52,478 nucleotides of DNA, filler included, from Sphacelaria rigidula (GCA_964200075.2; 3 parts of 3 records of this genome joined end to end with filler, not necessarily neighbours in it); one strand, 5' to 3'. Positions 17,430 through 49,315 are shown, numbered from the whole stretch's first letter. The notes: generated by a model from the sequence alone, not told the origin. Translations and numbers: made by a program.

Positions 17430-17529
17430 NNNNNNNNNNNNNNNNNNNNNNNNNNNNNNNNNNNNNNNNNNNNTTAATTAATTAANNNNNNNNNNNNNNN
17501 NNNNNNNNNNNNNNNNNNNNNNNNNNNNN
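17430..17529. other. Artificial contig spacer
   Basis: 44 N + TTAATTAATTAA (stop in all six frames) + 44 N, exactly 100 bp. Confidence 0.97.
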
Positions 17530-18249
17530 TAGGAGATTCAGCCCTTACAGCTCTCTTACTCAGTACAGCCGCAGGGCAGCCATAGGAGCAGAGCGTAGTG
17601 ATGGCCCAGGGTAGACCACGGCAAAGGCAGTAACTGACTGAGATGGGGCGCCGCGGCCTAGGGCCGAGGCTGAAGAACCCTAACTTATGATAGGAGCAAA
17701 CGCGATAACAACGCATCACGGAATCCAGGCTCTACGAGCAGACCCGCACAGCGTACATCTTGCAACGCCTCTGAGCTTCATCACACATGGGATTTGGTCA
17801 AAGAGAAAATATTGGCCAAGACTTTGAGCAGATGGGCTCATTCCCCTTGATTAGACGATTAATACGAACAGCCTCCGTATTTCGACTCATCTCCTAAGCA
17901 GCCTTTGTAATACAGCCGTCGAACAAGCGATGTGTCCACGGTCGTTCAACATGAATAGCTCAACTCGCGAACTGATATTATGTTGCACGTTACTCGGTAC
18001 CCCAACGGACGGGTGGCGTTACATTATGGGTTGACGCCTCTTCAACCTGCCGCCAGAGTGAAGAGCAAGGCTGTAGGCAAGGGTCGTTGATTTTAAACTC
18101 GGACCTACTCATATTCACTTCAAAAGATCATCCGGTCACATCCACGCGGATGTTTTGATCTGGATCTTCAAATTAAGAAATTACGGTTCACTACCGGAAA
18201 TTGTGAATATTTCACCGACGAACGAATGCTGAATTCAACTGTTCGACTT

Positions 18250-18840: not shown

Positions 18841-19207
18841 CGAATATGTGAAGCGAGAAGAGCAACTACCGTAGAATCTATCAAAGATGGAGGTTCTAAG
18901 GTAGCACGCGTTACGCAAAAGTACGGAAAATCAAGGGGGAAAACTGTGCAACACGAAATGGGTGCCGACCCTCTGGTGGGAAGTAAAAAGGGCAAGAAAC
19001 GTGTGCAGTTTGCTAGCCAAGGCGTAGCTTCTTTTGTGAGGTCATGTAAGAGAGTACATGTGGAAGGAGTTGCGGTTGCAAAGGCTAGAACATAAGAGCA
19101 AGTGGGGAATAAAACAGGTCGAGATAAGATGTTACGTGGGAGGCATCACCACCTGACATCGCCCCCAAGCTGCTTTTGTAAGCAAGACGTCTCTAGAGAC
19201 TAATAAA

Positions 19208-22200
19208 ATGCACGGATCCAAACTTTTGCCCCCAAGCTCGACAAAATTCGAGTCTTTTTTCTTATCTTCGTTGGCCCGCTACCCTAGGAAGCCGGCAACG
19301 CTACGACCTGCATCAGCAAGAGTGCAGGTTCCCGCCAGAGTCAACGGAATGGAGGTTCCGGCCATAACTATTGATACTGATTCGGATCTTCCCATAGTCA
19401 GTCTCAAGTTCATTCGTGCACATCCTACTTTGAGAGAGCAGGACATTCAATCCGTCCCATCGCGTTCTATCGATCTAAGGAGTGCTGACGGTTCACCAAC
19501 CACGATAAAGGGATTAATTCGCTTTGACCTCACGCTGGGTGACGTAACCTTGCCCGTCGAAGCATTTATCCTCAGGGATCTCGGGCCAGATCTCATGCTG
19601 ATAGAGAATTCGGGGATGGGCACATTTGGCGGGATTCTCGATTGGCAGGCAGAAACCCTGGCGTTTCGTAGTTCAACAGTTCGCCTTACAGCTACTCATC
19701 GACGAAAAGACAGAAAAGTTCATCCGAAGTTTTTAGAGTATGATTATTGTTCTGTCATACGGGTAGCATCGGCTGAAAATGTCCCGGTGTAACTCTCAAA
19801 GAGATGCTCCGTCCCGCCGCGAAGTGAGATGGCTCTCCTGGTTGAAACAAATGAGCCGCCAAAATTTACGACCGAAGCGGGCATTGAGCCAAAAATTGTA
19901 GCGAGTGAAGACCTCCAATCCAACAACGTACCGGATGCTTTTAGCCGCCTCGTTGTAGCACGCACAGCCTGCACCTGGTCAGCGGTCAACAAAACAGCTA
20001 TGGTACAAGTAGCAAACCCGTCGAATAGACACGTCCAACTCCCAAGAGATTCACTTTTGGGACACATCACACGAGTCGAAAAAAATCACCCGACGGGAAA
20101 CGCCGGTGAAATTTCACAAGTTGAAACAAATGAGCCGACGAAAAACGTCAGTGCAATTTCACAAGCTGAACGGCAACATACTGACGCCCGAGAAGAACTT
20201 ACACCAGCGCTCCAACATACATTTAAAGATAGCACGTTTTCTGACAATCAGAAGAGCCAAGTGCTCGACCTATGCATCAAATACAGGTCCGTATTATCTC
20301 TGTCACAACGAGAATTAGGTTGTTGTACAATTGGGGAAGCAACTTTTCCCCTTGTCCCGGGTACCAAGCCCGTCGATCAGGCCCCGTACAGAGCCAACCC
20401 CAGAATTCAAGAAGTCATCGACAACTGTGTCCAGGAGATGGAAAAATACGGCATAATCGAACAGAGACCCAGCCCATGGGGCTCGGCAGGGACGATCGTA
20501 GCTAAACATGATGGTAGCGCCCGATTTTGTGGCGACTACAGATCCACGCTCAATAAAAGTCTTGTGCGACAGTCATGGCCAATGCCTAATTTGGAAAGTC
20601 ATGTAGATACGGTGGCAGGCGCCAAACTTATCTCTGTCTTTGATGTACAGAGCGCGTTCCATCAGATCCCAATAGCGGAGGAGGAGAAAGAAAAATCGGT
20701 CTTTGTTACAGAGAAAGGTAAGTGGGTTTTCAACAGGCTACCGTTCGGCCTGGCATCTTCCCCGTTCATTTTCTCGCGAATAATGGCTCTTACTCTCTCA
20801 CACTTTGGACCTAGGAGCGGTCTGTTGGTGTACATGGATGATTTGATCGCCTGTTCCTCCACATGGGAAAGTCACCTCACTCTACTGGAAGACATGCTCA
20901 AAGCACTGAAAAAAGCAGGTCTTACCCTAAAGCCCTCTGAAGCACAGTTTGGTCCCAAGGAGGTCAAGTACCTCGGCTACACTTTGTCCGCCGACGGGAT
21001 CAAAACAGGGGAAGACCGCGTGAAGGCCATCTTAGATTCACCTACACCAACGAACATCAAACAATTACGTTCAGTGTTAGGGACGATTAATTTTGTGAGA
21101 AAATTTATTCCGAATCTCGCACAGGTAATCGCCCCGTTGGTAGATCTAGCGAAAAAACAGGCAGCCAAGGAAGTAGCAAAACGCTGGAATCACGAACACG
21201 ATGCAGCTTTCGCCGAAGTTAAAAAGCGTCTCACCACCGCTCCCGTCCTTCACTTCCCAGACTTTTCAAAGGAGTCCACCATCCAAGTTGACGCGTCTGG
21301 AGAGGGTGCTGGATCGGTGCTCACCCAAGATAAAGGGGGCAAAACTGCAATCGTAGCGTATTGCAGTCAGCGTTTCAATCATGCTCAGCGGCACTACTCT
21401 GCTGCACTCAAATAATGTTATGCAGTTGTATTAACTATACAACACTGGAGGCCCTTTTTATGGGGAAAACATTTCACGTGTGTGACAGACCATGCCGCAC
21501 TACGGTACCTCTACTCCATGCAAGACACGAGCAATATGTTGACAAGATGGGCGATAGCTTTACAGTCCTTTGACTTCACTGTGAGGCACAAACCGGGAAA
21601 ATTAAATATCGTTCCGGACACTCTGTCAAGGTTCTTTCGGTTTCAATAAGACCAGAATAATGAGGTCAAACCCCTGCTCGCGCCAACTTCTCGGAATGTC
21701 CCAGAGAATATCAAATTGCACGCGAAGAAACCGCACCAACCGTTTTAGATTTCAGCGGATAAATTGGATAATCTCATACCAGTACAGAGCGACAGAGAGC
21801 TGTTTACCGTCAACGCTACCCACACAAGCGCTACACATATTTTCACGTCTGTAAACAAAGACAAGTTGCGAACCGAACAGATAAAATAATATGGCTCTTA
21901 CATTCAATATCTGACAGACGACGACGCACCGTTACCGAAAAAGCAGACACTGACTTCTATGTCCTACGTTTTGCTCCGTGACGGTATTTTGTTCAGGTCA
22001 TACTTGCCAGGGAACCTTCGGGAAAACGGCACCGACCGCGATAGACTAGTGCTACCAGAAGCTCTGGTTAATTTCGTTCTGCACTCCTATCACGATCATG
22101 TGTTGTCTGGAGGTCACCTTGGATTCAAACCGACGTATGAAAAGATTAAGAACAAATATTATTGGCCGACATTGAGCCAAGATGTGCGAAAGTGATGTCA

Positions 22201-23443
22201 ACGTTGCCACTCATGTCAGATAAGAAAAACGGCCCATAACCGTCCGAAATTGCCTGTAGGCCACGTACCTGTGAACAGACCTTTTGAGCGGATATCGATA
22301 GATGTTGTCGAATACGAGACGATTTCAAATTCGTCAGCCGGTGTGCCGTGTAAGTATGTAATGTCTGTGATGGATCATCTGACACGATATGCACTGTTTA
22401 TTCCCATACCGAACAAATCCGCCAATACGGTGGCAAGAATGTTGGTAGACCGTGTCTTCACGACATTTGCGATCCCCGAATAACTTCATTCTGATCGTGG
22501 TAAAGAGTTCGAGAACCGGGTAATACACCAGTTGCAGTTGATCCTGAAGTTTGACAAAACACGCACGACACCATTCCGCCCTCAAGGCAACTCTATTTCA
22601 GAACGCGTACACTCGAATTTGCACGCTATGTTAGCCGTGCATGGTACGGTCGAACAAGACAACTGGGCGTCTATGCTACCCTTCGTGCAAATGGCGTATA
22701 ATATATCATTCAACACTTCAGTGCAAGAGACATCCTATTTTCTCACGTTCGGACGTCAACCAAGATTACCTGTCGACATTATTTTGGGCATTTCCGAAAA
22801 AGGGCACGCTGTGGATGCTGAACAATACGCGAAAGAGACAAAATAGAACTTGCAGATAGCTTTTGAAATTGCAAGACGCAACTTGAAAAAACGAGCAGAC
22901 AAACAAAAGGCAAGCAATGATAAGCTCAAGCCATATCCTGTCTTTAAACCTGGCCAACAAGTGCTACTGTTGAGGCCACACCAAGACACAGACGGTCCTG
23001 ATCCAAAGTTGGTATTACCATGGCGGGGGCCATACAAGGTTGTCAAACAAATTTCTCCGGTTGTCTATAAGGCCAAGATAGGCGAAGATGCAAAAGAGAC
23101 GTCAGTACACCTCGCCCACCTTGAGCAATACTATCCACGAGAACGACCCCCAGCTCCCGAGTTTGACCGACTCGACGCTTTTTTCCTAGGCAAAAAACTA
23201 CCCCTGCCCCAAGTTGACCGTCCGAAAGTAACGAAACCAAGAATTGAACGTTACATCGTTGACAAGGTGGTGGGCCACAAACGAGGTCCGGGAAGAAAGA
23301 GCCATCGAAATTACAAGTACCGCCTCCGTCTTCAAGGCTACGGGCCGTCAGCAGACTTAGAGTACCGAGCGGACGAGATACCACAATGTCAACAACTCAT
23401 GAACCCGTATCGAAGAAAAGTAAAGTTGGATAATACGCGCTAA
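19208..23443 (+). pseudogene. pol: Gypsy pol (protease, RT, RNase H, integrase, chromodomain) interrupted by nonsense codons
   Basis: Single frame throughout: IDTDS (decayed protease site), SPWGS, LPFGL, YMDD, VDAS, TDH, HDHVLSGGHLG..CHSC Zn finger, SIDVV/HSDRGKEF/GNSISER DDE core, WRGPY, and YIVDKVVGHK..YRLRLQGYG chromodomain. Stops at 19790, 21413, 21647, 21746, 21887, 22193, 22481 and 22844. Confidence 0.95.
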
Positions 23444-27800: not shown

Positions 27801-30442
27801 TGCGGTGAGCTACATGAATATGTTGAATCGATCCCGTGCACGGCCGTGCGTCGAAGTGCAGCCACTCCAAAACGTGACCCCGTCCCAAAATGTGGGGGCT
27901 GTGCATCGCCTCCCTTTCGCCATTGTGCGAGTGCGGTTGCGGTATGGAGCATACTAAAACCAAGTAATTTGATGATTTGATACTACAATGAAACCCAGCA
28001 ACTGATTCAATATTAAAAACAAATGGCTTTTGACTACACACCGAATTTCGAATACCCACATAATTCAAGTGATATGCTGGGGGAGGAGTAACGCGCATAG
28101 AGGGTCACAATGACACTGACGGCATAATGAACACAAAGTCATAACGTAACCATGGATACCATTGATATTTCTCGAGATCTCGTGACGGTAGCCTCCGACT
28201 CATTTACGTGCTTTTGGTCCGATCATTGAGCAGATTCAGATTCTTGGCGGAGGCCGCCAACCCGCTTCCTCGGAGCATCGCACACCCTTGTACGGACACG
28301 GTCAAGGTGGTGTCGGAAAATCCACCGTCACCCAAGTCACCTGAAACCACATCACCGCGAGTATATTTATCCAAATCATCGCGCATCAAAGCCAGTCTCA
28401 CAGTCACATCACGACAACCCCATGAGCTTGGTCCAGGTGATATGAGAAACTTCAACGTCACGGGAATCACCGCGTGAGCTCTAGTATTTTGTTGCGGATC
28501 CAGATCGCTAGCCAAATTCCGATCGGGTTGATGGGCGTGCATGAAGCGATCCCCGAGGGACTCAGCCATGGTCTCAAGATACATTTCCCCAAGGACGCTC
28601 GCTAGGAGAGAGTAATGGTGGAATGAAGGAAATGAACTAAAAACCCAAATCTAAGACAAGAATGATGAGAAAAAAGAAAAGGAAAAGCAGAAAAGGGAAG
28701 GAGAGAAATGAAGAGGAGATAAAAGGGGAAATGCAGGCCCGATGGGAAGAGAGCGTGCGTGCGATCGACCTGCAACAGTGCATTTTCTTGTGCCGGAAGG
28801 CCCTCACGGTGGAGCAAAGTAACTGCACGATGCGCAAGCCGCCGCGCTGGTACAACCTACCCTTGCATTCTCGATGGCCGTAGATGCACGTAAAATGAAA
28901 TGAATGTCGCTCCGTATTCTGCGCATCATGTGGTTACATGCACGCACTACCCGCTGAAAGATCAAGCACAGCACAGATAATCGCCGTGGCTTTTCTGCAG
29001 CAAGTCGTCATCCCACCGCACGATGTAAATATAACCTCGCGGAAGCCACCTACTTCGGTATATGTTCATCGAGCTAGCCGCCAAAGAACTCTGACCGGGC
29101 AAAAAGCTAACCGTACAAAGCCCCCCAATCTATACAGATGCACACGGCGTTCACGTTATTCGACGGTGCCGGCATTTTAGCTACACGCGCCCGCATCGCG
29201 CACTACTCCAGCTTCAGCCTCAAATTCAGCACCTTTTCCATATGCATCAGACACAAGTGTCACCACATAAAATACTTCGCGCCTCATTTCTCTGCCTCAA
29301 CTTTGTGCTGTATCATTCCTGCCCCCCTCCTCCATTCTCTGTTTACTCCTCCTACTCCCCCCCCCCCCCATATCCTTCCCCTTTCCGATTCCATCCCCCA
29401 CACCCAACCTCTTCTCTCCTGGCACACTCCTGTCCTCCTTGCTCCCATTTCCGCTCGATGTGTCTCCTATTCTTGCAAACGTTGGTGAGGTCACCCTTTG
29501 GCCATCGCCGGGGGCGTTGAGCCACTCATCATTCAACACCTGAGGTGATGATGTGTGTCTAGATAGTGGGCGGTTGCTTCTGCTTTGCAGAGGAAGGAGT
29601 GATGCTGAACCTCAAGGTCGTACTACGAAGCTGCACTACGTATTGTTTGCTCACTGCACATCACGTCGTACATTATACGCGTTTTGTGCGCTATTGGATA
29701 TTCATATACTTGGTTTGCACTAATATGGGCTTTGTCGTCTAAAGCGCCTCTAAAAGGTCCGAAGGCCCCTGTGTGTGCTCTGGAATAACGTCCTCATGTA
29801 CGATTGTCGCGGTTATTTTCGAGCCGGGGTAAATATCGAGAATAGACGGACCACGAGGTTCCGCGATTGGGTGGCGATATTTTCCGCGCTGCATACTCCG
29901 ACATCTTTATTTCCGCCGTGATCGGGTGGTACTGAGATCTCTCCCAATGTTTGCGTTCACCATCATCCTGATGCTTCATCAACGTGTTCTCCCTGTTGGG
30001 ATTTGAGAAATAACAGTTCCGAATATACATACTCAAGGTTAGTGGTAAAACCATTTACGGTCCATCATTAGAACAAAGATCGTAGTAGTAACCGAAGAGG
30101 CGGAATATTCGTCGTGGAACAATGAATAGCTCATGTACTGTATAGCTCGTATACAGAAAATCAGCATATTGTCAGAATTGAGAAGAGTTGAGTACGAAGA
30201 GTCTAAAGTGTCAACAGTTTGGATAAACAATTTTATAGTGTCCGAGAGGTTTGTCGAGAGATTAAAATAGCCCTAAGCGATCACTCTCCAAAGCGATCCA
30301 CCTCAAGTAAGCCTACCAGCTTGTCATCAGTTTTCTATAGAGTAGAGCCTCAAAGTCTTTGATTTGAGTTCGGCCGAGTGAAGCGCCAAGCTTGACCTAT
30401 TCTTTCTTTTATTGCACAAGCAAGTTTGGACGAAAATATCAC

Positions 30443-31027
30443 AGAAATAGCCTTCAATATTGCAAACAAGCCCGTTCAGCGGCCGCCGGACCGAACGCCG
30501 GAAGCCATCACCTACCTAATGAAGATACTGAGCAAATAGGTTGTCGACAGGCCACGGATACAAGAGGTACGTGGAAAACGAAGGTGTTTCCAGCGTGGGG
30601 TTGTTGGAAATATCTGTGGCTGTCGTAACTTGTGTACAAAATGCACAGTGTTCGACTGTCAACGTGACAGGAACCATTGGTTCAACTAGTGAACCCAGCT
30701 CTGACACGAGGGCTCACAGAGGCTGTACAGAATCCAACACTGTACAGCCTCTGAGAGTTCTCTTGTCAGAGCTGGGTTCACCAGTCGAACCAAATGTTCC
30801 TATCACGTTGACAGTCGAACACTGTACATTTTGGGCCCAAGCCACGACGGCCACAGATATTTCCAACAACCCAACGCTGGAAACACCTTCGTTTTCCACG
30901 TATCTCTTGTATCCGTGGCGTGTCGACAACGTGTTTGCTCAGGATCTTCATGAGGTAGGTGATTGCTTCCGGCGTTCGGTCCGGCGGCGGCTGAACCGGC
31001 TTGTTTGCAATATTGAAGGCTATTTCT
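30443..31027. repeat. Long inverted repeat (288-bp arms, 9-nt loop)
   Basis: Arms 30443-30730 and 30740-31027 pair with no net indel and roughly 90% identity by eye. Looser pairing extends to ~30423/31050. Confidence 0.97.
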
Positions 31028-31056
31028 TTGGAATTGTCGCCCGCAAACGGAAAAAT
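30904..31056 (-). pseudogene. Protein kinase C-lobe pseudo-exon (subdomains IX-XI) forming a hairpin arm
   Basis: Reads IFPFAGDNSKEIAFNIANKPVQPPPDRTPEAITYLMKILSKHVVDTPRIQE after a pyrimidine tract and AG. Its donor is mutated (AT). The + strand mirror copy keeps DRPRIQE|GTACGT but has an in-frame TAG. Confidence 0.7.
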
Positions 31057-31140
31057 CTTGGGGCTGAATCAGAGGGAGGGAGAGAAGGAGGGGGGAGGGG
31101 GCGCGCGGGAGGGATGGACGATGGGCGGTTTCCAGCACTC

Positions 31141-31229
31141 ATTGATGGGAGTAGTACATTGTGGGGATTCCAAACCTCAAAGATTAGCTACGTGGCTGAT
31201 TGTCTCACAATGATCCATTCCTCATCAAT
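31141..31229 (+). ncRNA. Candidate pre-miRNA-like stem-loop
   Basis: ATTGATGGGAGTAGTACATTGTGGGGA pairs with TCTCACAATGATCCATTCCTCATCAAT, including G-U pairs on the + strand. No expression evidence. Confidence 0.3.
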
Positions 31230-32151
31230 ACACGTGTAGTCTTTCGATTAACATGGATAACCAAGGAGAATAAACGAACACACTACTTCGCTTCGACGGC
31301 GAATCAAAATATGCTGACCAAATATAGGGGGGAAGGAGACGAAAGACATCAATGAACCGAAGACGCTGATGGACGAGAAATGGCGCACGGGAAAACCCTG
31401 ACGAGCGACATGGGCATAAAAGTGTTTTCAACAAACGAGGCCGCGGATAGAGATTGAGCTTCAGTTATCCGGGAACAGCATGACACGGAGCCTTTCATGC
31501 ACCAAACCTGAAGCAATGACAAACAGTCATTATTACACATACAGGGAGAGAGAAAAACGACGGAGATTGATAACAGAAGAGGGGAACCATTGTGATGTAC
31601 TTGAGAGAAGTAAGGAACAATCGGCAGCGCAAGCCAATCATGGCAACCTCAGGGTTCCCCTCTTCGCTCCTAGTCAGTCACAAAGCGATCCACTCTCTCG
31701 ACCGTTTCAATCTTGTTTAGCGTCGGAAGCAGCAGCTACGGCGAGTTGGAATGGCAGATTGCAGAGGGATGTTTGCATACGTAGGGCGCAGACGGCTGGA
31801 AGAGGACAGGGGGAGAAACGTTCTACACCTGCCAGCTATTATGAACGGTGTGTAGCGGCGGAGGTAGAAAGTGCAGAAGGGATCGACGTTTTGCTGATTG
31901 TTTGATTCAGGTGGAGGAATATGGAAGTAATGCCGCAAGACAGACGGGTCACCCTGTGGGTATTGGTTAGCTTCTTGCTTTGTTGACACACTCCGAAATT
32001 TCGCTCTACTCTCATCGATATCACCACCTCACCTCACCGGAAGCTCCTACACGGCTCACAAGCACAAAGCCCGCTAGCTCTGAACGACTCTGCTCGCCTA
32101 CTCAGCATCAGGTGGAGACAGATGCTCAAGCTCCATACATCTACGGGGAAC

Positions 32152-32595
32152 AAGACGGGATCTTACAAACTGGGGATAGATCTTTGATTGGGGATGAGAA
32201 ACCCGGAGAATTAAAATCTTCGTATCCACACCAAATTTTCGAGATATGGTTCCATTTCCTCATCTACTGATGTGTATTGACAACTGCTACACGCCATAGA
32301 GATTTGGATTCCGGTCACCGAAATGTTGGGGCCCTGAGTGTAAAACTAATTTTGAGGACTTTCGGGTGTCCGAACGGACACAAAAAAGGTTCCGGAATTG
32401 GTTTTTCACCCGGGACCCCAAACTTTCGGTGATCGAAAACGAAATTTCTAGGACGTGTATCAGGTGTCAATACCTATCCGTAGGCGAAGAAATGGAACCA
32501 TATTCCGAAGATGTGGTGTGGTTATGGATATTTTAATTCTCCGGGTTTCTCATCCCCATCAAAAGATCCATCCCCAAATTGTAAGGTCCTGTGTT
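32152..32595. repeat. Long inverted repeat (220-bp arms, 4-nt loop)
   Basis: Centre GTGTCC-GAAC-GGACAC (loop 32372-32375). Shared blocks such as GGGGATGAGAAACCCGGAGAATTAAAAT, no net indel, more diverged than the 30443 hairpin. A looser outer stem reaches ~32040/32680. Confidence 0.93.
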
Positions 32596-32992
32596 AAACC
32601 CGTCGCCGTTACTGCGCTGGCGATCGTCAGCAAGCTCGAGGGCTTGATACGTTGGTGAGCCTTTGGAGGTTTGGAAGAGTACCGGAGAAGAGATAGCTTA
32701 GTATATCACGAGTTTACACCACCATACGGTTTGAAGCCGAGGCGTTTCATGTTGAAACCAAACTCATGAATGATCGTGTTTGGATCGAGCAAAACCTTGA
32801 CGCGGCCATCGATGAACCGAACGATGAAGATGGCAGCGTGACCATCTTCGACTGCGGCGCACCTTTGACATCACCACCTTCGAAGCGGGCACAACTAACT
32901 CTCGCACGACTTTATTGAAACTGAACAACGGTACCACATGACAACAGTTGAGACACCACCCGATCGGTACGCGTTCACTATTTTGTGCACAA

Positions 32993-34508
32993 AATGACCA
33001 GGTAGCATACCCTCACGACCACAGGGTCCTTCACGGCGACGTGAAGCTAGCAAACGCCGTGCTAGATGCCAGCTGGCAGAACGCGAAGCTCATTGACTTC
33101 GGCTTTAGCAGGATGATCAAAGAAGGTCTTCTGACCCATTCTTGTGGCGAGTATACATTGTGTTCTATCCACAGGGAAGCAGCATTCATCAAATTGATTA
33201 TGCGCTCGAAAGGCGCAGAAAACCTCAGGCTGGACTACGGTAAAAGAAGGCGAGCCACGTACTGGGAACCGTACGGCAAGGTCAGCACCTACCTGATGGC
33301 CGGAAATCGGGTGTTATTTTCCCACAACATGTAATCCAACGTGATCCAGTGGATTGTGCGTATCGTTCCCCAGCCAACCAGCAAATCAAGTACGCGGCTC
33401 ACCTTCTTTTACCGTAGTCCTGTGATGCGTGAGAGGACCGCGTGCTTAGAGGACCGCATCTGAATTTGAACATCCCTATGGTTGGGGTTAGGGTTAGGGT
33501 TAGTGTTGGGGTTAAGATCAGGGGCGTGGTTTCTGCAGGGACTGGTCCGATTAGTTTTGAGAACGTCGATCCTGGGGTGTTTTGGACAACGGCGCGGTCC
33601 TCTAAGCACGCGGTCCTCTCAGGCATTACAGTCCAGCCTGAGCTTTTCTGCGCCTTTCGAGCGCAGAATCAATTTGTTGAATGCTGCTTCCCTGTGGATA
33701 GAAGACAATGTACACTCATCACGAGGATAGGTCAGAAGACCTCTTTTTAGTATCTTGCTGAAGCCGAAGTCGATGAGCTTCACCCTCCGGCATCTGGCGT
33801 CCAGGACGGCGCTTGGTAGCTTCACGTCGCCGTGAAGGACCATGCGGTCGTGAAGGTATCATACCTGGTCATTATGTTCCTCATAATGACCAGGTACGAT
33901 ACCTTCACGGCTACAGGGTCCTTCACGGCGACGTGAAGCTAGCAAACGCCGTCCTAGATGCCAGCTGCCAGAGCGTGCACAAAATGACCAGGTAGCATAC
34001 CTTCACGGCTACAGGGTCCTTCACAGCGACGTGAAGCTAGCAAACGCCGTACTAGATTCCAGCTGTCAGAGCGTGAAACTCATCGACTTCGGCTTCAGCA
34101 AGATACTAAAAAGAGGTCTTCTGGTCTATCCTCGTGGTGAGTATACATCGTCTTCTATCCGCAGGGAAGCAGCATTCAACAAATTGATTATGCACTTGAA
34201 AGGCGCAGAAAACCTCAGGCTGGACTACGGCAAAAGAAGGCGAGCCACGTACTCGGGACAGTACAGCGAGGTCAGCACCTACCTGATGGCCAGAAATCGA
34301 TGTTATTTCCCCACAACATGTAATCCAACATCATCCAGTGGATCATGCGCATCGTTCCCCAGCCAACCAGCAAACCAAGTACGTGGCTCGCCTTCTTCCA
34401 CCGAAGTCCAGCCTGAGGTTCTTCTGCGTCTTTTGGGCGCAGAATCAATTTGTTGAATGCTGCTTCCCTGTGGATAGAAGACAATGCATACTCTAGTATC
34501 TTGCTGAA
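32993..34508. pseudogene. Protein kinase catalytic-loop/DFG exon fragments in alternating orientations
   Basis: VLHGDVKLANAVLD...KLIDFGFS copies: + 32993-33263, - 33389-33873 (with MITE), + partial ~33882-33975, + ~33983-34253, - partial ~34378-34508. GTGAGT donor retained at ~34137. No complete kinase ORF. Confidence 0.9.
33421..33630. mobile_element. 210-bp MITE with TGT...ACA ends, 37-bp TIRs, 4-bp TSD and internal telomere-like repeats (Ginger-like)
   Basis: TIR TGT(G/A)ATGC(G/C)TGAGAGGACCGCGTGCTTAGAGGACCGC. TSD GTCC at 33417-33420 and 33631-33634. The empty site AGTCCAGCCTG is present in the paralogous copy at ~34405. GGGTTAGGGTTAGGGTTA at ~33485-33502. Confidence 0.9.
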
Positions 34509-34954
34509 TATCTCTGCGGGCCGCCCCCCCGCTGGGGTGGGCCCACACCTAACAGCGGTCTTAGCCCACAAATAGACCACTGAACCGACAACAGAGTGGC
34601 AGGAAACGAGGTGAGAGATACGAGACCTAGTCTCGTGTCGCTGCGGATCCTGAGTTTGGCCGATAGAAATCACGAACATCACGACCAACGTGACTTGTAT
34701 CGCACCAAACCTGTCGGTAGAAACCATCCCCCCCCGACTGCCCATACTGGAGTGAGCAGGAGTCTACCACGGATCTTAAACCACGAAACACCATTCGACA
34801 ACAACAGTAGAGACACGAGCCCGAGCATCGTATCCGCGGGGAGCCTAAGTTGAACGTTAGGGAGCACAGAGATCGCCATATATACCTGTAACAACAAATT
34901 GTGCGAATTGAGGTTTAACTTCGAGATGAGGCTCAAGCCCAAAACAGTGCTTTC

Positions 34955-35054
34955 NNNNNNNNNNNNNNNNNNNNNNNNNNNNNNNNNNNNNNNNNNNNTT
35001 AATTAATTAANNNNNNNNNNNNNNNNNNNNNNNNNNNNNNNNNNNNNNNNNNNN
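34955..35054. other. Artificial contig spacer
   Basis: 44 N + TTAATTAATTAA + 44 N. Confidence 0.97.
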
Positions 35055-35124
35055 TTTGCTTCCTTGCGGTTCTGGTAGTGGGTTGTGGTGGGGTGTGGGG
35101 GGGGAGGGGGGGGGGGGGGGGGGT

Positions 35125-35165
<41 letters not shown>

Positions 35166-36379
35166 CATTATCTTGCATGCCCTAGTCAAGTGCAACTTTC
35201 CACCAAGAACGGTCCCGAGAGAGGTCAAAAGAGAGCGAGGGCAAAGGAGAGAGAGAGAGTAAATGGAGGTGGATGTGAGTGAGCGATATGCTGCAAGGCC
35301 TTGGCGCGGTCAACGTCAGGATAACCCTTTTTTTCACTACATGAAAGGAGCATTACTTTACGTGAAATGATTCAGTGGGATGTGCAACACCAAGACATGG
35401 GAGCTTCAAAATGAAAATAGGCGGAACTGAACAGCGACTGCAGCTCGGTTGTGCCACGGGTCATGGACACAGCGGTTCTCATTTAACTGCAACTGGATCT
35501 AAAGCAAAAAAACAAACACCGTGCTCAGTCGACCGAAAATACTGTATCTCGGTGTGCGTGTTGTTGCATCGCGAGCAGCACTAGATACCCGTACGGCATA
35601 GGTGTAACCGTTCTGTGCACCCTGACTTCATGTGCCCAGTCGCATTACTTGGTTGCTACAAACCCCCCATGGCACCATACATGTTCTCGTTCACCAATCT
35701 GGTGGGTGCTTTCCCCTCTGCTGAAATGGAGTTGGGCCTCTTCAGATATTCCTAGCGAAGAGCGGGATAATCATGAGAAAGTGGAAGGCGCAGTTCACGG
35801 GTCCCCTCCTTCATCAACGGTCTGACTAGGATATTATCTTCAGCAACAACTTTCGGTTCAAAAGAGCATGACCGAAATTTGGGTCAAGACAGCTTTAATC
35901 AACCTCACGGCTTCCGCTCGGAGAGCAGGGAGGGTGAAGGCGACAAACTCACTGCTGCGGTTTGATGCCCATTGCTGTCCTGCCCAGTTGGCGACGGGAA
36001 GAGACTTTTCGAAAAAACAGGGGAAAAAAAAGTAGGCGTGAAACCAATACATCACCACCTGCGCGCGTCGCCGCCTGTACCACGTGAACTCGTATCAATT
36101 ACATACGGTATGTGTGTTGACGACATACACGTACTACTGTACTGTTTGAGGAGAAAATGTTCCGAGACGGCAGCGTGCTGCTCATCGTGGCTTGTGCGGG
36201 ACAGACGGCGACGTGCAGAATACGCCTGACAGCGGGTTGTTATGATGTAGGCGTTGACTTTCCCACAAAACATATTTTTTTCGAACCCGTCCACGAAAAG
36301 CAGCTAACTGGGGACCAACCGGCAAGCGGGAGCTAGGAGCGTTCATTTATTTCAGTCCCCATCTTGTCCCGGTCAAAGG

Positions 36380-36567: not shown

Positions 36568-38313
36568 GGAAATACAAGGGGTCCCGCTATAGTACGGGCC
36601 ATGTCGGTTCGTGAACATACCGGAACATGTTGTGTGATGCAAATTCGAGATTTGCGGTGTGACGCATGAACCCCCTGTACAGCATATAATAGTACTGTGG
36701 AGTAATAGTGTGCACAGTACATGGTGCACGCCGTCGTTCGCATGCCCGGTGAAACGTACAATGGCGCACACGACAGGCGCGTCGCTGTGCAAAAAGGGAA
36801 AGGGGGCTTCACGTAAGCCCTATGACATCAAAACTCCCACGTATCGACAACAGTCTTGGACCAAGAGAAAAATAAACAAAAACAGTTTTCGGAACAGAAT
36901 CTGAGCTTTTTCCATCCCCTCACCCACTGTCTGTTGCAACGCCCGACCTCAGATCCAGACACATGGACTTGTTGACTGTGATTTACATTACACATGATCG
37001 AAGTTTTAGCGCCTTGCAGCGACTACACGCCGACCGTGACTACCACGCGGAGCATCTCTACATGCGACACCATAATATTTTCCTAGAAATTGTCATTATC
37101 CAAAGGGTGTGCCAGTACTGATTTATGTGTCTGCCAGCGCTGCACCCTCCCAGGTGCTCATGATGTGGAAGTGAGCGCACGACCATGTCCACATATGCAT
37201 CTACTCACAGTACAGTGCACAGAATCTGGGCTGCGAGGTAGCCGTATTGAGGGCGTATTGACGGTATATAGGTTCTCGCCTAGTTCAATTTGCTCGGTGG
37301 ACGAAATGAGGTGTTATCCCCTTCACACCGTGCCTGCGTTGTGTCCGACTGGTGCACGAAGTTTCATGGGAGTGACTTTACCCATGGTCAAGAAAAGCTT
37401 CCGTTCAGAAGTGCCATGATTTTTGTGTGCGGGTCAAGGGTGGGCATTCCGGTATATTTTTGTTTTTTTCCTTCTGGCGCAGGACTGTCAATAGCACGCT
37501 CAGGCAAGTAAAAGTAAGCCCCATGAGCCAAAGCCGCTTGGCAGTTTGAAGCAAAGCACTGGTATATTACTATACACTGACTGGCTGTACTCTACTCACC
37601 GTACATTACGGCCGTCACTACAATGCCAGTGACACGGTAATGTAGTGTAAGATGCAGGCGGGCAGTGTTTGTGTTGCCGGCCGTTTTCATGGAGCGCGCG
37701 GTAGCGTACTACACAGTATATAGCACCGAGCTGGCTGTGCTGGCAAGCTCAAATCGACATGTCCATCGCCATACAGTCAAGAACAGAAACGTACTCCAAA
37801 CAATTGACACTATTATATTACTGTACCTCTTGGTAACATACAGCAGGACGGGATAGCCGCGATCGGCGTTGCATCGTGAGAAAGAAAAGCATGTCACAAA
37901 ACAAACTGGGACCGTCCAAGAGGGCTGGCTCATATTTTCTTTCTTGCGTGCAGTAGTACATTGCATGCAGTTCAGCAGCATGTACAACATGTGAAGTGTG
38001 CGTAGAGATCCCATTGCAACGCCTGCGAGGGGAGGCAGCACGGGAAATAAAATATAAAGGGGGTAACGGCCGTGTCCAAGTACTTGGTTTTATAGACAAG
38101 TGCGAATCAAACACAGCCGTTACACGTCTGTGCAGTATGCGTAACGGTCCAATTGACTTTTTCATTGATCTCATTGTACCGAATGTACTGTACTTTATCC
38201 ACTGTGGTTTGCAGCTCGGAGGGAGAAACCCCAGACCATAATAAACACACGTGCACACAAACATGACATAAAAAACAACCAACGCGAACACACCCTCTAC
38301 CCACGGCCCTCAC

Positions 38314-38820
38314 CACATAGCTGGGATCAATTTGCCTGAACAAAAAGCCCATGATGTTTTTGAAATCTCGTGTGCTCGGTCGGCTCAGAGTCTTGAGGTT
38401 GATCGGCTCCTGGTACCCGTGAGTGCTCAAATAATCCGCCATCTTGTGGAGAGACTCGTTCAGGTACGACTTGTCCATCAGAGGGCGGGTGTCCGACCTC
38501 TGCCCTCCACCGCTTCCGTACGTCGATCGCCGGACACCCGTTGATGACTTACGCTCCGAAGGAGCAAGGCTCGGTCGCCCCATGCTGGGCCGCTGTCCTC
38601 CCATACTCGGCCGCTGTCCTCCGCCCATGCTCGAGTGAGCAACCATGCTCTTCCGCCCCCCGCCCCCGCCCAGCGTTGTTGACCTGCCTCCTGCAGTTGA
38701 TATACTAAACCTTGCGGGTTTGGTTGTGACCATGGAAGAGCGGGACGGCACGCCCCCCGAGCGAGAGTTGAGGGAGGCGCTTGAAACCGTTCCCAGCGTG
38801 TTGCGCTTGCGAGATGCCAT
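38314..38820 (-). CDS. NDC80: Kinetochore protein NDC80/HEC1, first exon (3'-partial)
   Basis: ATG 38820, then a basic S/G-rich tail, then DTRPLMDKSY...YLSTHGY...LSRPSTRDFKNIMGFLFRQIDPSYV, typical of the start of the Ndc80 CH domain. GTGAGG donor at 38313. Later exons were not found before the 35054 spacer. Confidence 0.92.
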
Positions 38821-39396
38821 GGCTGCCCGAGACTTTTTCAGAGCCGGTGCTGTTGTATTGTTATCTGTGTCGATGGCTTGAACGCAGTTTGAGGCTTGTT
38901 TTCGTAACGAGTTCCAGCAGGCCGGTGTTATTGAAAAACAGTCGCCAGTCACTGCGGCACAAGAAACGACCTCGCCTCGAGTTAAATGCCGCCCCAACTT
39001 CTGCAGGGGATCTATGAACCCGAAGTTACTCCAATATCCTTATCTCTAGATACACGACACCCCTAAAATGAAGCTCCCGCCGAAGATATGCAAGTGTGGA
39101 GAGGAAGAATGAACATTGTCACAGCATTCCTAAATGATCAGTGATGTGACCAAGCCCAAACAAACAAAACAGCCGTTGGTCTTTTTTCAGGGCTACCGCC
39201 TGTGCAATGTACTCGAAACCCCTGAAATTTCATCCTCTCATGATTTATCAAAGACCATGTGGTACTGACTGTGAAGTATAAGGTGCAGGTGCGTGGACAG
39301 GAGGAAGGAAGGCAGAGGACAGCACCAGAACGGCGTATCTTCAATCTATGAGCGGCGCCCTCGTCGCCGGAACAACCGCGTGGACTTCGTGTTTCA

Positions 39397-42300: not shown

Positions 42301-45300
42301 CCAGAAAAACATCCCAACATGTGCAGAGCTACGTCGTGAATGTGAAGACAACATTACACACAGTACAAGTATTGAATAAATTCCCAGCACAAAAAAATGA
42401 AATCCCCGATCCTCATGAGAAGAGGGCGTAACGAGCAAGTGTTCAGCTTTTGGTCTTCATTTTTTCCGGGGAAAATATATTGTAATTTCTCCGACATCTC
42501 CCACAAAAAACGCCGAAAAGGCCTTCCGACGCTAGATTTCCCCAGAAATCTGTAGGCGGTCGGTCTTCTTTTGATTGATGCCCTGATGTGGATATCAAGA
42601 AGTTTGCTCGTACACTTTTTCGAGAGGAAGCTTTTCCCTCAACAAACTCGGAGACTTCAGGGGGGTGGGGGGGGGGGGAAGACTCGTTAACCCTTCGACC
42701 TCAGGCATAGGTCATCTGTTGACACGGCACCGATTTCACTTGAAAAATATTTGCATGGTCAGATGACGTCGAAGATTGCTAAATGTTGAATAATACGGTC
42801 AAGGAGCTGAAATCTAATGCAGGCGTGAAGACCCGCGGCAGGCGATGATTTCGATTTGTTTCCGAAGGCAATATACAGGAAGGAAATCAAGTCCTCAAAA
42901 ACGGAAAATAAATATCACCTTCATGGTATACGAGAATATGTGAGATTGGTGAACGAGCAGTCCTTGCACTCACAGGGTTGAAATCCGATGCCACACACAC
43001 GAAGCTTCTCCGGGGAATATTTTAATATTTTGTGCTACGGGAAACTGCTGAGAGATCCAGTAGATTGATCTCAATCTGCTTTTTTTGCCTTGCTACAACA
43101 CAGACTCCTGGCACCGCCGACAACGCCGCCACCACTCTCGGAATACTTGTTCGCAATACTCGTAAACGCCTCAAGTCTCCTAGCCCCTGCGTATCCGTCT
43201 CGTGCACCGTCCCGGCTCTTTAGTGATGCGAGGTCAATGGTATTGTGATTTTTGCATCCAAGATCATGAGCACACCCTCCCCCGACCCTCCCCCCCCCCG
43301 CGCGCTTCCGATAATCCCGATGATACTCGCTCCCAGTTATTGCCGACAGTAACCAGCCAGTCTCTGGAAAGCCGGCTGGCTGCCGCAAGCGCGGCCCATA
43401 GGTCGTCACTGGAGACGTTGGGCAAGGCCAGCCCGCGCTGCAGCAGCCCCTTCTCCACGAGCACTACCGTGCGCAGGAGATCGACCAGCCTGATACATGT
43501 CAACGGCAACGAGGTGCGAAGAGACCTTTTTTTTTCATTTTATTCATACATTTTCCGCAACGGTTATGTCGTCGTTCCCCCAGTGGGCCAGCAGGTACGC
43601 ATAGCATTACATCTGTGGCGACATTTTTTGCTTCACTTGTCGTACTGTACCTTTTTTTTTAGCCCCCGCCCCCCACCTCGGGATGAGTCCGTACTCCTCC
43701 TGAGGGATCATCAGCTCATGTCCCCCCGACACTGGTCTTGCAATTTGTCATCCACGGTTGGATTATGACTATCAGCAATCCTACAGTCCCCTCGACGTAC
43801 TTGCCAAATAATGTTTTGTGAACTAACGTTTTCATGATTGCCTCAACGGAAATCATGAGCATCAACTATTACTACTACTGTATCCAGTGGTTGAAATCCG
43901 AATGTAGGTGTGACGAAAGTTTTTTTGCGTCGAGCAATGTGTCGGTGTATTTTCAAAAACCAGCTGAACGTGCTGGGAGAGAGATGAACGAGTAGTCTAC
44001 AAGGGCCAGGTCGAGTAGAGTACACGTATACGCAATTGCGGGGTATTCTGAAAGACGTGCTTGAGGTACTCAAATTAGGGTAGAGTGTTGGGAGCCGTAC
44101 CCGATAAATAACTGGAAAGCGATCCCCAAAATCCTACCCCTAATTTGTGTACTTCAAGTACAACTTTCAAAATACCCCGCAATTGAGTATACTCCACTCG
44201 ACCTGCCCTTGGTAGTCTATCTGGATCATGCATACTTTTTCAAGTGAAATCGATGCCGATTTCACCCATGACCTACTCTCGCAGTCTAAGGGTTGAGATC
44301 ACGGGCTCGCCCGGGGAAAGGAAAGGGGTTAGAAGTTAATCCTTTGACCGCAAGGGAAAGCCACCCGCTGAATCGTCAAGGTTCACTTAAATAAAGTATG
44401 CGTGAGCCAGATGACTTCGACGGTAGGTCACCTGCCGAATCGGCATCAATATCACTTGAAAAAAGATCATGTGTGATCCAGATGGACTACCCGCGTCGCG
44501 GTCCAAGGGCTAACCCTTTGAAGGGGAGTGTAGGTCATATATTGAATCGGCATCAATTTCACTTCAAGAAAGTCTGCATGATCCAGATGGACTACCCCCG
44601 CGGTCCTCAGACCGCAATTCAGGTAGTCCATCTGGGTCATGAAGACTTTCTTCAAGCGAAAATTTATGCCGATTCCGCAGGTGACATACCCTCGCGGTCA
44701 AGGGAATGAGAGCCTGCACAAAAAAAATGAGATGATTGCTGCGTGTCGGTGCTTTGCGTGGGACGGATATTTCGAGTGCTTGCTGTTCGGAGACTGGCCC
44801 GACGGTTGAATAGCGCCTCTCTTCATTTCGACGGAACGTTATGAAACGCTATTATATATCAAGGCTTCGCCCTTGTGCTTGGCTAAGGAACGGGATGGTG
44901 ATACTGTGCATTTGATTGAGAATGAAGGAGAAAAGTTACCGCACAAGGTCACGGGCCTGGATGATCTGTCAGTCCAGGCAGACAGACAGACATTCCCAGC
45001 GCGGAGGGTGCCGTGTCTTACCGAACGGAGACCAAGAAAAAATCAGGAAAAGGAACAAGCATCTAAAAGCAACATGTTGAATGATCGTCGGGGGGGGGGG
45101 GGGGGTTACGGTTGCGGCGGCTAATCAGTATGCTGGTTTTAAAGGGGGGCTTTTCCGTTTTCCCCCTTTTTTTTTNNNNNNNNNNAAAGTGAGACAGCAG
45201 GGCGGTTTTTGGTGTTCGGCGGCGGGGGTTGTGGGGGGGGGGTGGGTGTGCGTTTACGGTTGCGGCGGCTAATCAGTATGCTGCTTTTAAAGGGGGGCTT

Positions 45301-46619: not shown

Positions 46620-47315
46620 ATCCCTACAAAGCCGGGACGGAGCACGCCGGGTTCTCGTCGGGCCGGGCTCGCAATCAATCACCAAGCGCGAAGCGCTGTT
46701 CGGGGAGTCGCATGAAGGCTCAGCTGCTACCGGCTGGGATTGTTCGGACCAAAGCACACTGATCATCTTGCATCTGGATGACAGCCTAGAAGCAGTTGCT
46801 TCACTTTCTGCTACTATATCGCCACTTTCAGAGACAGCTACGGGTTACACACTGCCTCATGGGTGTCTCACCATATAAACACTACGTAGTATGATCACCC
46901 CCTTTGCGCGGAATATAAGGTTTTCCCACGCCAAACAATGTGATCGACCTCGACCACCATCATGAGAATCGAAAAAAAATGCAGGCGCGCAAAAATAAAT
47001 CGGTAACCTGCTTGCCTAGGTTACGCAGTGAGTGGCGTGTTTTACAGCGTCACTGCGAACCGACGCCAACCCCATAGAGGGTTCGTCCCTACAAAGCCTG
47101 GCCCGCGGTCAATCACCAAGCGCGAAGCGCCGTGATCTGTTTGGCGAGTCGCATGAAGGCTCAGCTGCTACGTGCTCAGACTGTTCGGTCCGAAGCAGAC
47201 TGATTATCTTGCATTTGAATGTCAGCCTAGAAGCAGTTGCTTCATTTTCTGGTACTGTATCGCCACTTCCAGAGACAGCCACGGGTTACGCACTGCCTCA
47301 TGGGTGTCTCACCAT
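46620..47315 (+). repeat. Two ~230-255 bp direct repeats
   Basis: ~46620-46875 and ~47085-47315 share CAATCACCAAGCGCGAAGCGC...CTGCCTCATGGGTGTCTCACCAT. Confidence 0.9.
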
Positions 47316-47319
47316 TTAA

Positions 47320-47490
47320 CCCATAGACCGCGGGATTAATCTGTCTGGATCATGCATATTTTTTTTCACTTGGAAGTGGTGTCGATTCAACACAAGACTA
47401 ACCTCGCGGTCCAAGGGTTATCGACATCAATTTCAAGTGGAAAAAAAGTATGCATGATCCAGAAAGACTAATCACGCGGTCTAAGGGTTG
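47320..47490. mobile_element. piggyBac-like MITE plus adjacent half copy
   Basis: TTAA-CCCATAGACCGCG...CGCGGTCCAAGGG-TTAT (47320-47417), followed by a partial opposite-orientation copy ending GCGGTCTAAGGG. Confidence 0.8.
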
Positions 47491-48511
47491 AACATTACGT
47501 ACCATAGTACGACCATTCCCTTTGAATGCAAGGTGCGGTGGGAGGGGGCAGGAGGGGACGCACTCATCCGTTGCTTACCTTTGTCATTTGACCGTTGACC
47601 ACGTATCTCTTTCGAGACAGAGCACCATCCCTACTCCTATTATTAATAGAAACGTCCAACATTTGGGCGCTCATTACGTTTCTTCCATTCATTACACCAG
47701 AACGTTTCACTTATGGCCTTTATCCCCTTCCTGTTTCGCCCTCTGTGGCCACCATCAATGTCCTAGAACAGCGATCATGTTCTCGCCACTATCTGATGTA
47801 CCAAACGTTTTTGGGGGGGGACGGGGGGAAGGAGTTCGCCATGTTCGAAGAAGAGGAGGTACGACGCGGGGACTAAATTTCACTCGTTTGACTTATTATG
47901 CGGCCGCTCTTGCGTAGAGAAAAATGCACGAATGATTGAAGTAACAGTAGCACATGTATTTTCGAGGGGGAAAAAGGCGGGTACTTGCTGGAAGTCTTGG
48001 AGTGTCTTTTTCTACGGGCATGTCTGTTTTTTCTCGTGTGATGACATGCAATTCAAACCGTATTGCTGTTGTGGTTTTTCCTTGTCGTACGTACCGTTGA
48101 AAGGTTTGTCTCGAAAGTCTTTCTGCGGCATTGGCCCGCATAAATCGGTTTCACTTATTACCCGCGACTTGGTTGAAGAAGCTCGGGAGCCGACGGCATC
48201 ATGTCCGTAGCGGATCACGGAGTATGTTTTTCGCTCAAGAAGTGGACATGTGATGACAGAATCAATGAGCGCTCTCACGAGTTCACAGCGCAAATGCCCA
48301 CCTGTTGAACAGAGGTGTCCGTTGCAAATCAGGATCATGTTGAGTTGGAAAATGACTTTTACAAGAGTGGGGTGTGTATCCGTCTGCGGCCAGGTGCAAA
48401 GGGACAACTTCTTTGAATTTTCGCTGGACACCCCAAAATTGTGCTCCAGCAGATCGTGTTGCAAGTTTTGTGTCCAGAAGTTGGTCATTCTGCCCCTGAC
48501 CCTTTGACGAC

Positions 48512-48833: not shown

Positions 48834-49142
48834 TTAATCCTTTGACCGCGAGAGTAGTTCACTTGCTGAGTCGGTATCTATTTCACTCGAAGAAAGTATG
48901 CATGATTCAGATGGACGACGCGCACCGCGGTCAAAGAGCTAACCTTCGACGGCGAGAGTAGGTCATCTCTTGAATCGGCATCATTTTCACTTGAAGAAAG
49001 TATGCACGGTCCAAATAGACCACCCTCACGCTTTGATTCTTTGACCGCGAGGGTAGGTCACCTGCTGAATCGGCATCAATATTGACTTGGAAAAAGTATG
49101 CCCGGTCCAGATGGACCTCCCGCACCGCCGTCCAAGGGCTAA
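48834..49142. mobile_element. Three tandem piggyBac-like MITE copies
   Basis: Three head-to-tail ~100-bp units, each starting CTTTGACCGCGAG or a variant and carrying the TCGG(C/T)ATC...AAAGTATGC core. Confidence 0.8.
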
Positions 49143-49315
49143 GGCCAACTCTTATGGAAGCGTTTGAAATTTTATTTTGCAACAATTTTAGAGGATTTTT
49201 TTTTTTTGTCATCATGGTGAACGGGCACAAAATACACAACTACGGCAAATAAAATAAAAAAGTAATTTGAAATTATTGCCAAATAAAATTCTAAACACTC
49301 CCATAAGAGTTGACC
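49143..49315. mobile_element. 173-bp PIF/Harbinger (Tourist-like) MITE
   Basis: TIRs GGCCAACTCTTATGG / CCATAAGAGTTGACC, extending ~45 bp imperfectly. TAA on both flanks (49140-49142, 49316-49318). Confidence 0.8.

Follow-up and report, generated by a model that had tools for sequence, protein, structure and literature searches.

According to a model said to go back to Allen et al. in 2004, young MIRNA genes are born when the gene that they will target undergoes an inverted duplication. Pseudogenes are another source of small RNAs, among them those that yield the endo-siRNAs (small interfering RNAs made endogenously) of mouse oocytes. Here we describe a locus that recalls both systems, a cluster of long hairpins built in part from protein-kinase exons, located between positions 30424 and 34508 of a 52,478-nucleotide stretch of DNA (hereafter the window) from the brown alga Sphacelaria rigidula (GCA_964200075.2). 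A preliminary description of this sequence had proposed a locus that repeatedly acquires gene fragments as hairpins and produces small RNAs against a kinase family or other targets. We find it likely instead that what lies here are the 3' two-thirds of a kinase pseudogene, decayed and carried on the minus strand, and that the hairpins are structural damage to this gene and not a purpose-built small-RNA locus.

The closest described systems resemble this locus only in part. Young MIRNA and hairpin RNA (hpRNA) genes, as presented in the available portions of the reports on the Drosophila hpRNAs (PMC10317233) and on the Teosinte Pollen Drive hairpin (PMC11390486), have stems of several hundred bp made from an inverted gene segment that includes an exon, as does the locus described here, in which the arms are ~10-14% diverged. 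Unlike in those cases, the inverted copies lie inside the parent gene, beside the source exon, the parent is a pseudogene, and the mismatches between the arms look neutral. With the pseudogene-derived small-RNA sources of rice, as outlined in the accessible text of PMC2708354, the locus shares a dead paralogue, internal inverted repeats and the potential to form double-stranded RNA homologous to live relatives; in the literature searched, no source of this type was described for brown algae. The brown-algal microRNAs (miRNAs) offer a further comparison: within the sections of PMC4513859 at hand, the miRNA fold-backs of Ectocarpus have a mean length of 170 nt and none was traced to genes or transposons. 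The intronic miRNA hairpins of Ectocarpus lie in introns of protein-coding genes, on the host strand, and so do the kinase hairpins; however, against that mean of 170 nt stand 440-890 nt of exon or transposon sequence here. By the criteria for brown-algal miRNAs given in the same sections, hairpins of 445-890 nt made of exons or transposons fall outside the class.

The window is made of three separate contigs linked by N...TTAATTAATTAA...N at 17430-17529 and 34955-35054, and features are therefore not to be read across the joins. The hairpin locus occupies the 3' end of the middle contig (17530-34954; 17.4 kb of a fragmented assembly). To identify the kinase sequences, the window was searched by tblastn with 115 kinases, with a profile built from 30 of those 115 and with the Pfam Pkinase family (PF00069; cut-off 31.7 bits). 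Between 32989 and 34140, Pfam recognised three copies of one exon, corresponding to profile positions 111-160, with E values of 1e-8 to 5e-6; two copies scored 35.1 and 36.4 bits, above the cut-off, and the third 26.7 bits. This catalytic exon bears the HGDVK..N and DFG motifs, and the protein closest to it, P0001 (136 residues, from Sphacelaria rigidula according to NCBI), is 63% identical (E 8.5e-16). The gene would belong to a CAMK-like family with the catalytic loop HGDVK. The kinase profile matched the minus strand at 33858-33742 (profile positions 175-213), 32144-32100 (242-256) and 31053-30907 (259-309), and P0001 gave a weak tblastn match at 32150-32097 ('PVDVWSL', E 2.4e-4). Gene order is thus kept on this strand: exon VIb-VII is followed by exon VIII-IX and then by exon X-XI (Table 1).

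The reading frame is kept as well. Exon VIII-IX begins at 32660 after a ...ccaaag acceptor, in a phase that fits the preceding exon, halts at 32600 at the hairpin 32152-32596, and resumes at 32151. When this hairpin and one AAC are taken out, the exon is in frame, and exons VIb-VII and VIII-IX together align to residues 41-136 of P0001 with 46% identity (E 1e-26) and no gap at the excision site. Exon X-XI can be joined if a GC donor is used at 32098, together with a ttcag acceptor. Joined in this way, with the 445-bp element and one AAC copy removed, the three exons encode 138 residues without any stop, and the product is recognised as one kinase domain (profile 175-298) with a score of 81.0 bits; the score is 71.2 bits when exon X-XI is left out and 55.2 bits when exon VIb-VII stands by itself. 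Exon X-XI is worth ~10 bits, and none of 500 shuffled tails reached the real score (maximum 80.9, mean 71.4, standard deviation 1.8). These Pfam, tblastn and profile matches confirm the earlier statement that three of the fold-backs hold kinase exons with flanking intron, and it was also correct that the locus has no intact open reading frame. The idea of repeated capture of gene fragments is not upheld: the kinase pieces are consecutive exons of one resident gene, duplicated in place, and the third hairpin is a miniature inverted-repeat transposable element (MITE).

As it stands in the sequence, the kinase gene is dead, because an in-frame TGA at 33859-33861 forms the second codon of the sense catalytic exon, a transposon lies within exon VIII-IX, and the donors are mutated (ATGAGT for exon VIb-VII, ATACGT for exon X-XI, and GCGAGT). 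The APE motif is altered to ALE. With the N-lobe absent from the contig in addition to the stop, the transposon and the mutated donors, neither a complete kinase domain nor an open reading frame for one is left.

Table 1. Features of the hairpin locus and of the kinase pseudogene in the window, ordered by position. A1, A1', A2, A2' and As are copies of exon VIb-VII.
Feature	Position	Strand	Description
Hairpin 1	30424-31048		Inverted duplication of exon X-XI and ~170 nt of downstream intron; arms 30428-30730 / 30740-31042, 9-nt loop
Kinase exon X-XI	31063-30907	-	C-lobe, 'PF.G...' motif; resident sense copy, mostly within the right arm of hairpin 1
Kinase exon VIII-IX	32660-32098	-	'GSPTYQALE ... 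PVDVWSL'; split into 32660-32600 and 32151-32098 by a transposon
Hairpin 2	32152-32596		Fold-back MITE-like transposon of 445 bp inside exon VIII-IX; arms ~221 nt (78-81% alike)
Arm A1	32985-33263	+	Exon VIb-VII copied in inverted (antisense) orientation, flanks included (~14-18 nt upstream, ~115 nt downstream)
Loop of kinase hairpin unit 1	33264-33388		125 nt
Nested MITE	33421-33630		210 bp, 38-bp terminal inverted repeats (95%), in arm A1'
Kinase exon VIb-VII	33864-33717	-	Sense copy, part of arm A1', with the catalytic loop HGDVK and with DFG
As	33882-33977	+	Partial extra copy of the 5' part of exon VIb-VII, 96 nt
Kinase hairpin unit 2	33975-34508		Tandem duplicate of unit 1
A2	33975-34256	+	Intact acceptor, GTGAGT donor
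Loop of unit 2	34257-34374		Between A2 and A2'
A2'	34375-34508	-	Truncated, with an internal deletion

Two regions of this gene have been duplicated in inverted orientation. Hairpin 1 leaves out only the first ~15 nt of exon X-XI. Its right arm continues into the rest of the exon with the frame kept and carries the ATACGT donor, while its left arm, the inverted copy, has kept a GTACGT donor and contains a TAG stop at 30537-30539. In the kinase hairpin complex (32985-34508), arm A1 sits within the intron 3' of exon VIb-VII, and the right arm of unit 1 begins at 33389, as defined by the inverted repeat 33232-33263 / 33389-33420. As and A1' form a near-palindrome (33781-33977) with a spacer of 5 nt. 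The two units were compared directly: 32985-33420 is 88% alike to 33975-34409, and the likeness of 33630-33717 to 34405-34493 is 92%. The likeness is 87-90% among the copies on the plus strand, 90% among those on the minus strand and, over the core, 86-88% between the two strands. As the plus copies cluster together and the minus copies cluster together, the inversion came first and the tandem duplication second. A head-to-head (mirror-image) duplication of the kinase unit was considered and rejected, since the two units correspond in direct orientation, in their loops as well as in their arms. No target-site duplication was found at the outer edges of either inverted duplication (30424/31048 and 32985/33877).

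Hairpin 2 and the nested element are of a different nature. Hairpin 2 is flanked by a 3-bp target-site duplication, AAC, at 32149-32151 and 32597-32599, and its empty site in the homologue P0001 is precise, with the frame restored and an ungapped match. The nested element has the target-site duplication GTCC (or TC), and its empty site is intact in A1, A2 and A2'. Copy number was gauged by the summed contig depth in two DNA runs from two studies, X1 and X3, in which the baseline is ~27-29. For the left and central bins of hairpin 2, the depth was 175,392 and 35,098 in X1 and 229,159 and 43,806 in X3; at 95% likeness, only the outer ~100 nt of the arms are high-copy, and the inner part (32284-32512) is unique. 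The summed depth of the nested MITE, which includes telomere-like GGTTAG/GGTTGG units at 33480-33514 (period 12, 2.9 copies), was ~79,000-203,000. No other copy of hairpin 2 or of the nested MITE is present in the 52-kb window, and the 28-nt core of the MITE terminal repeat had no match in the JGI metagenomes. By their terminal inverted repeats, their target-site duplications and empty sites, and their high copy number, 32152-32596 and 33421-33630 are MITEs. They share with known MITEs and fold-back transposons the terminal inverted repeats, the short target duplications, the lack of coding capacity, the high depth and the empty sites; the two kinase hairpins are not of that kind.

The segments 34890-34954, 33421-33630 and 32177-32257 are present in very high copy; at 34721-34954 the depth rises to as much as ~470,000. 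In many contigs elsewhere, 33629-33631 is linked directly to 34889-34890, or 32584-32595 to 33420-33421. These three segments may be parts of one larger repeated element, inside which the contig ends.

To evaluate the hairpins themselves, the minimum free energy (MFE) of the RNA was compared with that of shuffled versions (20 or 100 shuffles) and expressed as a z-score. The preliminary description had named seven successive fold-backs. Five of them are real. With z between -17 and -49, they compose hairpin regions at 30428-31042 and at 32152-32595 and, as a third, the complex 32989-34508. The first has an MFE of -512.8 versus -189.8 in shuffles (z -48.9; none of 20 equalled it), and the second a z of -24.0 (0 of 100). 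In the complex, z was -36.3 for 32989-33877 (0 of 20) and -17.5 for 34085-34512 (0 of 100), and it was -37.2 for the alternative pairing 33625-34230, which no shuffle equalled. A repeat finder delimited the inverted repeats: 303-nt arms in hairpin 1 (90% alike), 221-nt arms at 32152-32372 / 32375-32595 (78%, or 81% counting gaps), and 248-nt arms both at 32989-33236 / 33630-33877 (86%) and at 33630-33877 / 33979-34226 (88%), with shorter pairs up to 34493. The remaining folds did not hold up. The two small ones, in the intron between exons IX and X, were compared with 2071 sliding 100-nt windows taken across the whole 52 kb and are at background level: 31135-31235 (z -2.9, MFE -30.2 kcal/mol) is close to the 10th percentile (-31.2), and 31575-31665 (z -5.0) ranks 31st of the 2071. 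The region 29690-30390, described as a very decayed fold-back, was rejected: its z is +1.0, its fold was equalled or bettered by 17 of 20 shuffles, and the repeat finder detected no inverted repeat in it.

The clustering of the hairpins is real. Beyond 30428-34493, the window holds no inverted repeat with arms longer than 72 nt among the 19 pairs listed, two of which are the N-linkers. The earlier remark that the fold-backs have unrelated sequences is misleading, as they come from different exons of a single gene, with a transposon in addition, and the statement that they lack target-site duplications is wrong for the two elements flanked by AAC and by GTCC (or TC). High-copy fold-back transposons with target-site duplications, which the preliminary description had set against its own proposal as a possible source of the arms, do account for 32152-32596; they do not account for hairpin 1 and the kinase units, which have no target-site duplication and through which single-copy contigs pass. 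Beside the left arm of hairpin 1 lies a moderately repeated element (~29990-30360), with a depth of 2,474-2,726 in the bin 29990-30238 against ~28.

How the exons are ordered, the frame that they keep, the target-site duplications, the copy numbers and the succession of the duplications are direct observations, to which the following course of events would correspond. Exon VIb-VII and the adjoining intron would first have been copied, inverted, into the intron just downstream (arms of ~275 nt, loop of 125 nt); the whole kinase hairpin unit would then have been duplicated in tandem, together with an extra partial copy of 96 nt. Exon X-XI and ~170 nt of downstream intron would likewise have been duplicated in inverted orientation around a 9-nt loop. 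A fold-back MITE would have inserted into exon VIII-IX, and a second MITE into arm A1', the latter after the tandem duplication. We propose that the inverted copies came from fold-back or template-switch errors of replication or repair at short loops, that the palindrome may have prompted the duplication in tandem as well as the near-palindrome with a 5-nt spacer at 33781-33977, and that the arms are now probably decaying neutrally. If the locus is transcribed, its stems would be Dicer substrates, and small interfering RNAs (siRNAs) would be a by-product.

Inverted duplications attributed to fold-back or template switching in human (PMC3907307) and to origin-dependent inverted-repeat amplification (ODIRA; PMC4689423, PMC10766183) are, in the available parts of these reports, similar in having a short spacer at the axis, which is 9 nt and 5 nt here, and a secondary tandem duplication around the palindrome. 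In contrast, they extend over kb to Mb, whereas a few hundred bp within one gene are involved here, where the mechanism is suggested by the anatomy of the locus. Decay similar to repeat-induced point mutation (RIP) or driven by CpG was also considered and rejected, as transitions are not dominant in the comparisons of plus with minus copies.

Several observations weigh against a resident gene damaged by DNA repair. First, one gene underwent two independent inverted duplications, and the outer edge of each lies no more than ~15-18 nt from the exon's 5' boundary, one just inside this boundary (30424/31048) and the other just outside it (32985/33877), which would be odd if repair errors struck at random. 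The shared position may be a coincidence or a clue to the mechanism; it could point to an RNA-templated origin, such as from a splicing intermediate, rather than to DNA repair. Second, the 303- and 248-nt arms are free of insertions and deletions despite 10-14% substitutions. Third, the depth is raised in parts of the kinase arms (35-199) and of hairpin 1 (93-1381) compared with ~27, which indicates close copies or paralogues elsewhere; the related sequence probably consists of paralogous kinases or short repeats. When the kinase exon profile was applied to metagenomes, it retrieved five distant loci with 47-100% identity over short segments, none of which (0/5) had an inverted repeat of at least 40 nt.

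Other points of this kind concern the completeness of the gene. No N-lobe exon was found on the contig by tblastn or with the profile, which leaves the 'gene' incomplete. For exon VIb-VII, the exact donor is uncertain, as P0001 and P0002 continue beyond it, and the junction between exons IX and X requires a GC donor. Exon X-XI is recognised as kinase only in its context, on which its assignment rests; taken by itself it gives nothing credible, its length being too small and its divergence too great for recognition. Pfam assigned no family to the single short exons (54, 32 and 21 aa), and a word-indexed protein search with exon X-XI gave three candidates, none of which was scored. Its three hits among 1.84 billion proteins (E 8e-6 to 5e-4) are multi-repeat Ig-like or DUF1375 proteins and were dismissed as spurious, since the match runs via a proline-rich stretch. 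The search for longer homologues of P0001 returned two matches, with no full-length close relative on which the exons could be mapped. A weak tblastn match at 17905-18006 on the minus strand was dropped, as it reads unlike a kinase.

The strongest competing explanation gives the stems a function. Were the dead kinase gene still transcribed, its exon-bearing stems might be diced to siRNAs that silence intact paralogues, and the locus would be a candidate hpRNA or endo-siRNA locus. Several properties fit such a locus: the stems are long and stable, with folds far beyond chance (z -48.9, -36.3, -37.2 and -17.5 for the kinase hairpins, within a range of -17 to -49 overall); perfect duplexes of 21-45 bp remain within the exon parts (30443-30472, 30482-30505, 33025-33049 and 34079-34123); the arms are homologous to a protein-coding gene in two of the three hairpin regions; and a family of paralogues exists, as shown by P0001, 63% identical over the exon, and by the raised depth of the arms. 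In another stramenopile, Phytophthora, inverted repeats are, according to the available part of PMC3804510, the most productive sources of small RNAs per Mb, which makes incidental siRNAs plausible here too. However, the stems carry no sign of selection, which would appear as a G:U bias and fewer transversions. The G:U-compatible mismatches, in the plus versus the minus RNA, are 7:7, 9:11 and 15:10, so that compatible and incompatible changes balance on both strands, and transversions are about as frequent as transitions (transitions:transversions 14:17 in hairpin 1 and 20:15 in A1/A1'). The mismatches between the arms thus look neutral. In addition, the arms are just 86-90% alike, the promoter-proximal exons are absent from the contig, and in Ectocarpus no miRNA locus descends from protein-coding genes in the portion of PMC4513859 considered above. 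Runs X8 and X9, whose nature as RNA is no more than a guess, contain only short high-copy pieces (30131-30178, 32183-32255, 33425-33471, 33562-33621 and 34890-34954) and are silent on expression. On this evidence we regard a silencing locus as unlikely, although some incidental siRNA output is possible if the region is transcribed. That siRNAs from the stems would act on intact HGDVK kinases, which would give brown algae their first example of a small-RNA gene that arose through an inverted duplication of the target, appears improbable.

The kinase pieces could also have arrived together, as cargo of a multi-copy composite transposon of the fold-back or Pack type, and not belong to a resident gene. 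The surroundings are indeed rich in transposons, with a Ty3/gypsy pol at 19157-23443, the two MITEs and high-copy ends; the depth of the kinase arms is 35-199 against ~27; and contigs elsewhere that join 33631 to 34890, and 32584-32595 to 33420, indicate that repeated pieces travel together. The spacers between the hairpins, on the other hand, are single-copy in both runs (depth 23-38; 30986-31981 and 32729-32977), which means that the whole locus is not a repeat. Moreover, gene order and phase are kept among the exons, whose spacing over 3 kb resembles that set by introns, no target-site duplication surrounds hairpin 1 or the kinase units, and the right arm of hairpin 1 continues into the rest of its exon. 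A cargo origin is therefore improbable. Finally, although the locus occupies the end of a contig of 17.4 kb in a fragmented assembly and adjoins a very high-copy repeat, it is very improbable that it is an assembly or amplification chimera, as the preliminary description had also judged. The arms differ by 10-22%, whereas chimeras yield identical arms. Contigs of X1 with single-copy depth cross the axis of hairpin 1 (30644-32184) and that of hairpin 2 (32284-32512). X3, which has substitutions of its own (e.g., 11 in 1,847 nt), extends over both arms of hairpin 1, with no listed X3 piece spanning the axis. The AAC duplication and the restored frame mark the transposon insertion as genuine.

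Outside the hairpin locus, an Rfam scan of the window gave no match. The Ty3/gypsy pol on the same contig (19157-23443, plus strand) comprises a protease region, reverse transcriptase, RNase H, an integrase C-terminal domain and a weak chromodomain; it is split over adjacent stop-to-stop frames and is thus a degenerate copy. A poly-C run lies at 29348-29369, and the third contig begins with a long poly-G tract (35080-35166). On this third contig, an open frame at 38110-39039 (minus strand) matches the Ndc80/HEC kinetochore family (Pfam PF03801, E 2.2e-17) and is an ordinary eukaryotic gene without relation to the hairpin locus. The other two contigs contain MITE-like inverted repeats with short arms of 40-72 nt, at 10073-10604, 42689-44661, 47315-47492 and 49136-49322; small fold-back elements seem to be common in this genome.

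A decayed kinase pseudogene in which exons have been inverted and duplicated in place constitutes a well-resolved case of gene decay in a repeat-rich brown-algal genome, with the order of events readable from the sequence. It displays several modes of decay: exons were duplicated locally as fold-backs, a palindrome spread in tandem, and MITEs inserted. It also calls for caution in genome scans, as a cluster of hairpins with gene fragments can be one broken gene plus transposons and not a capture locus. If the siRNA reading were true, a small-RNA gene would have been caught at its earliest stage, still within the parent gene, with the inverted copies in introns beside their source exons. Because no miRNA locus of Ectocarpus is traced to a gene or a transposon in the available sections of PMC4513859, a kinase hairpin that yields siRNAs would show that the route of small-RNA birth by inverted duplication of the target is also at work in brown algae.

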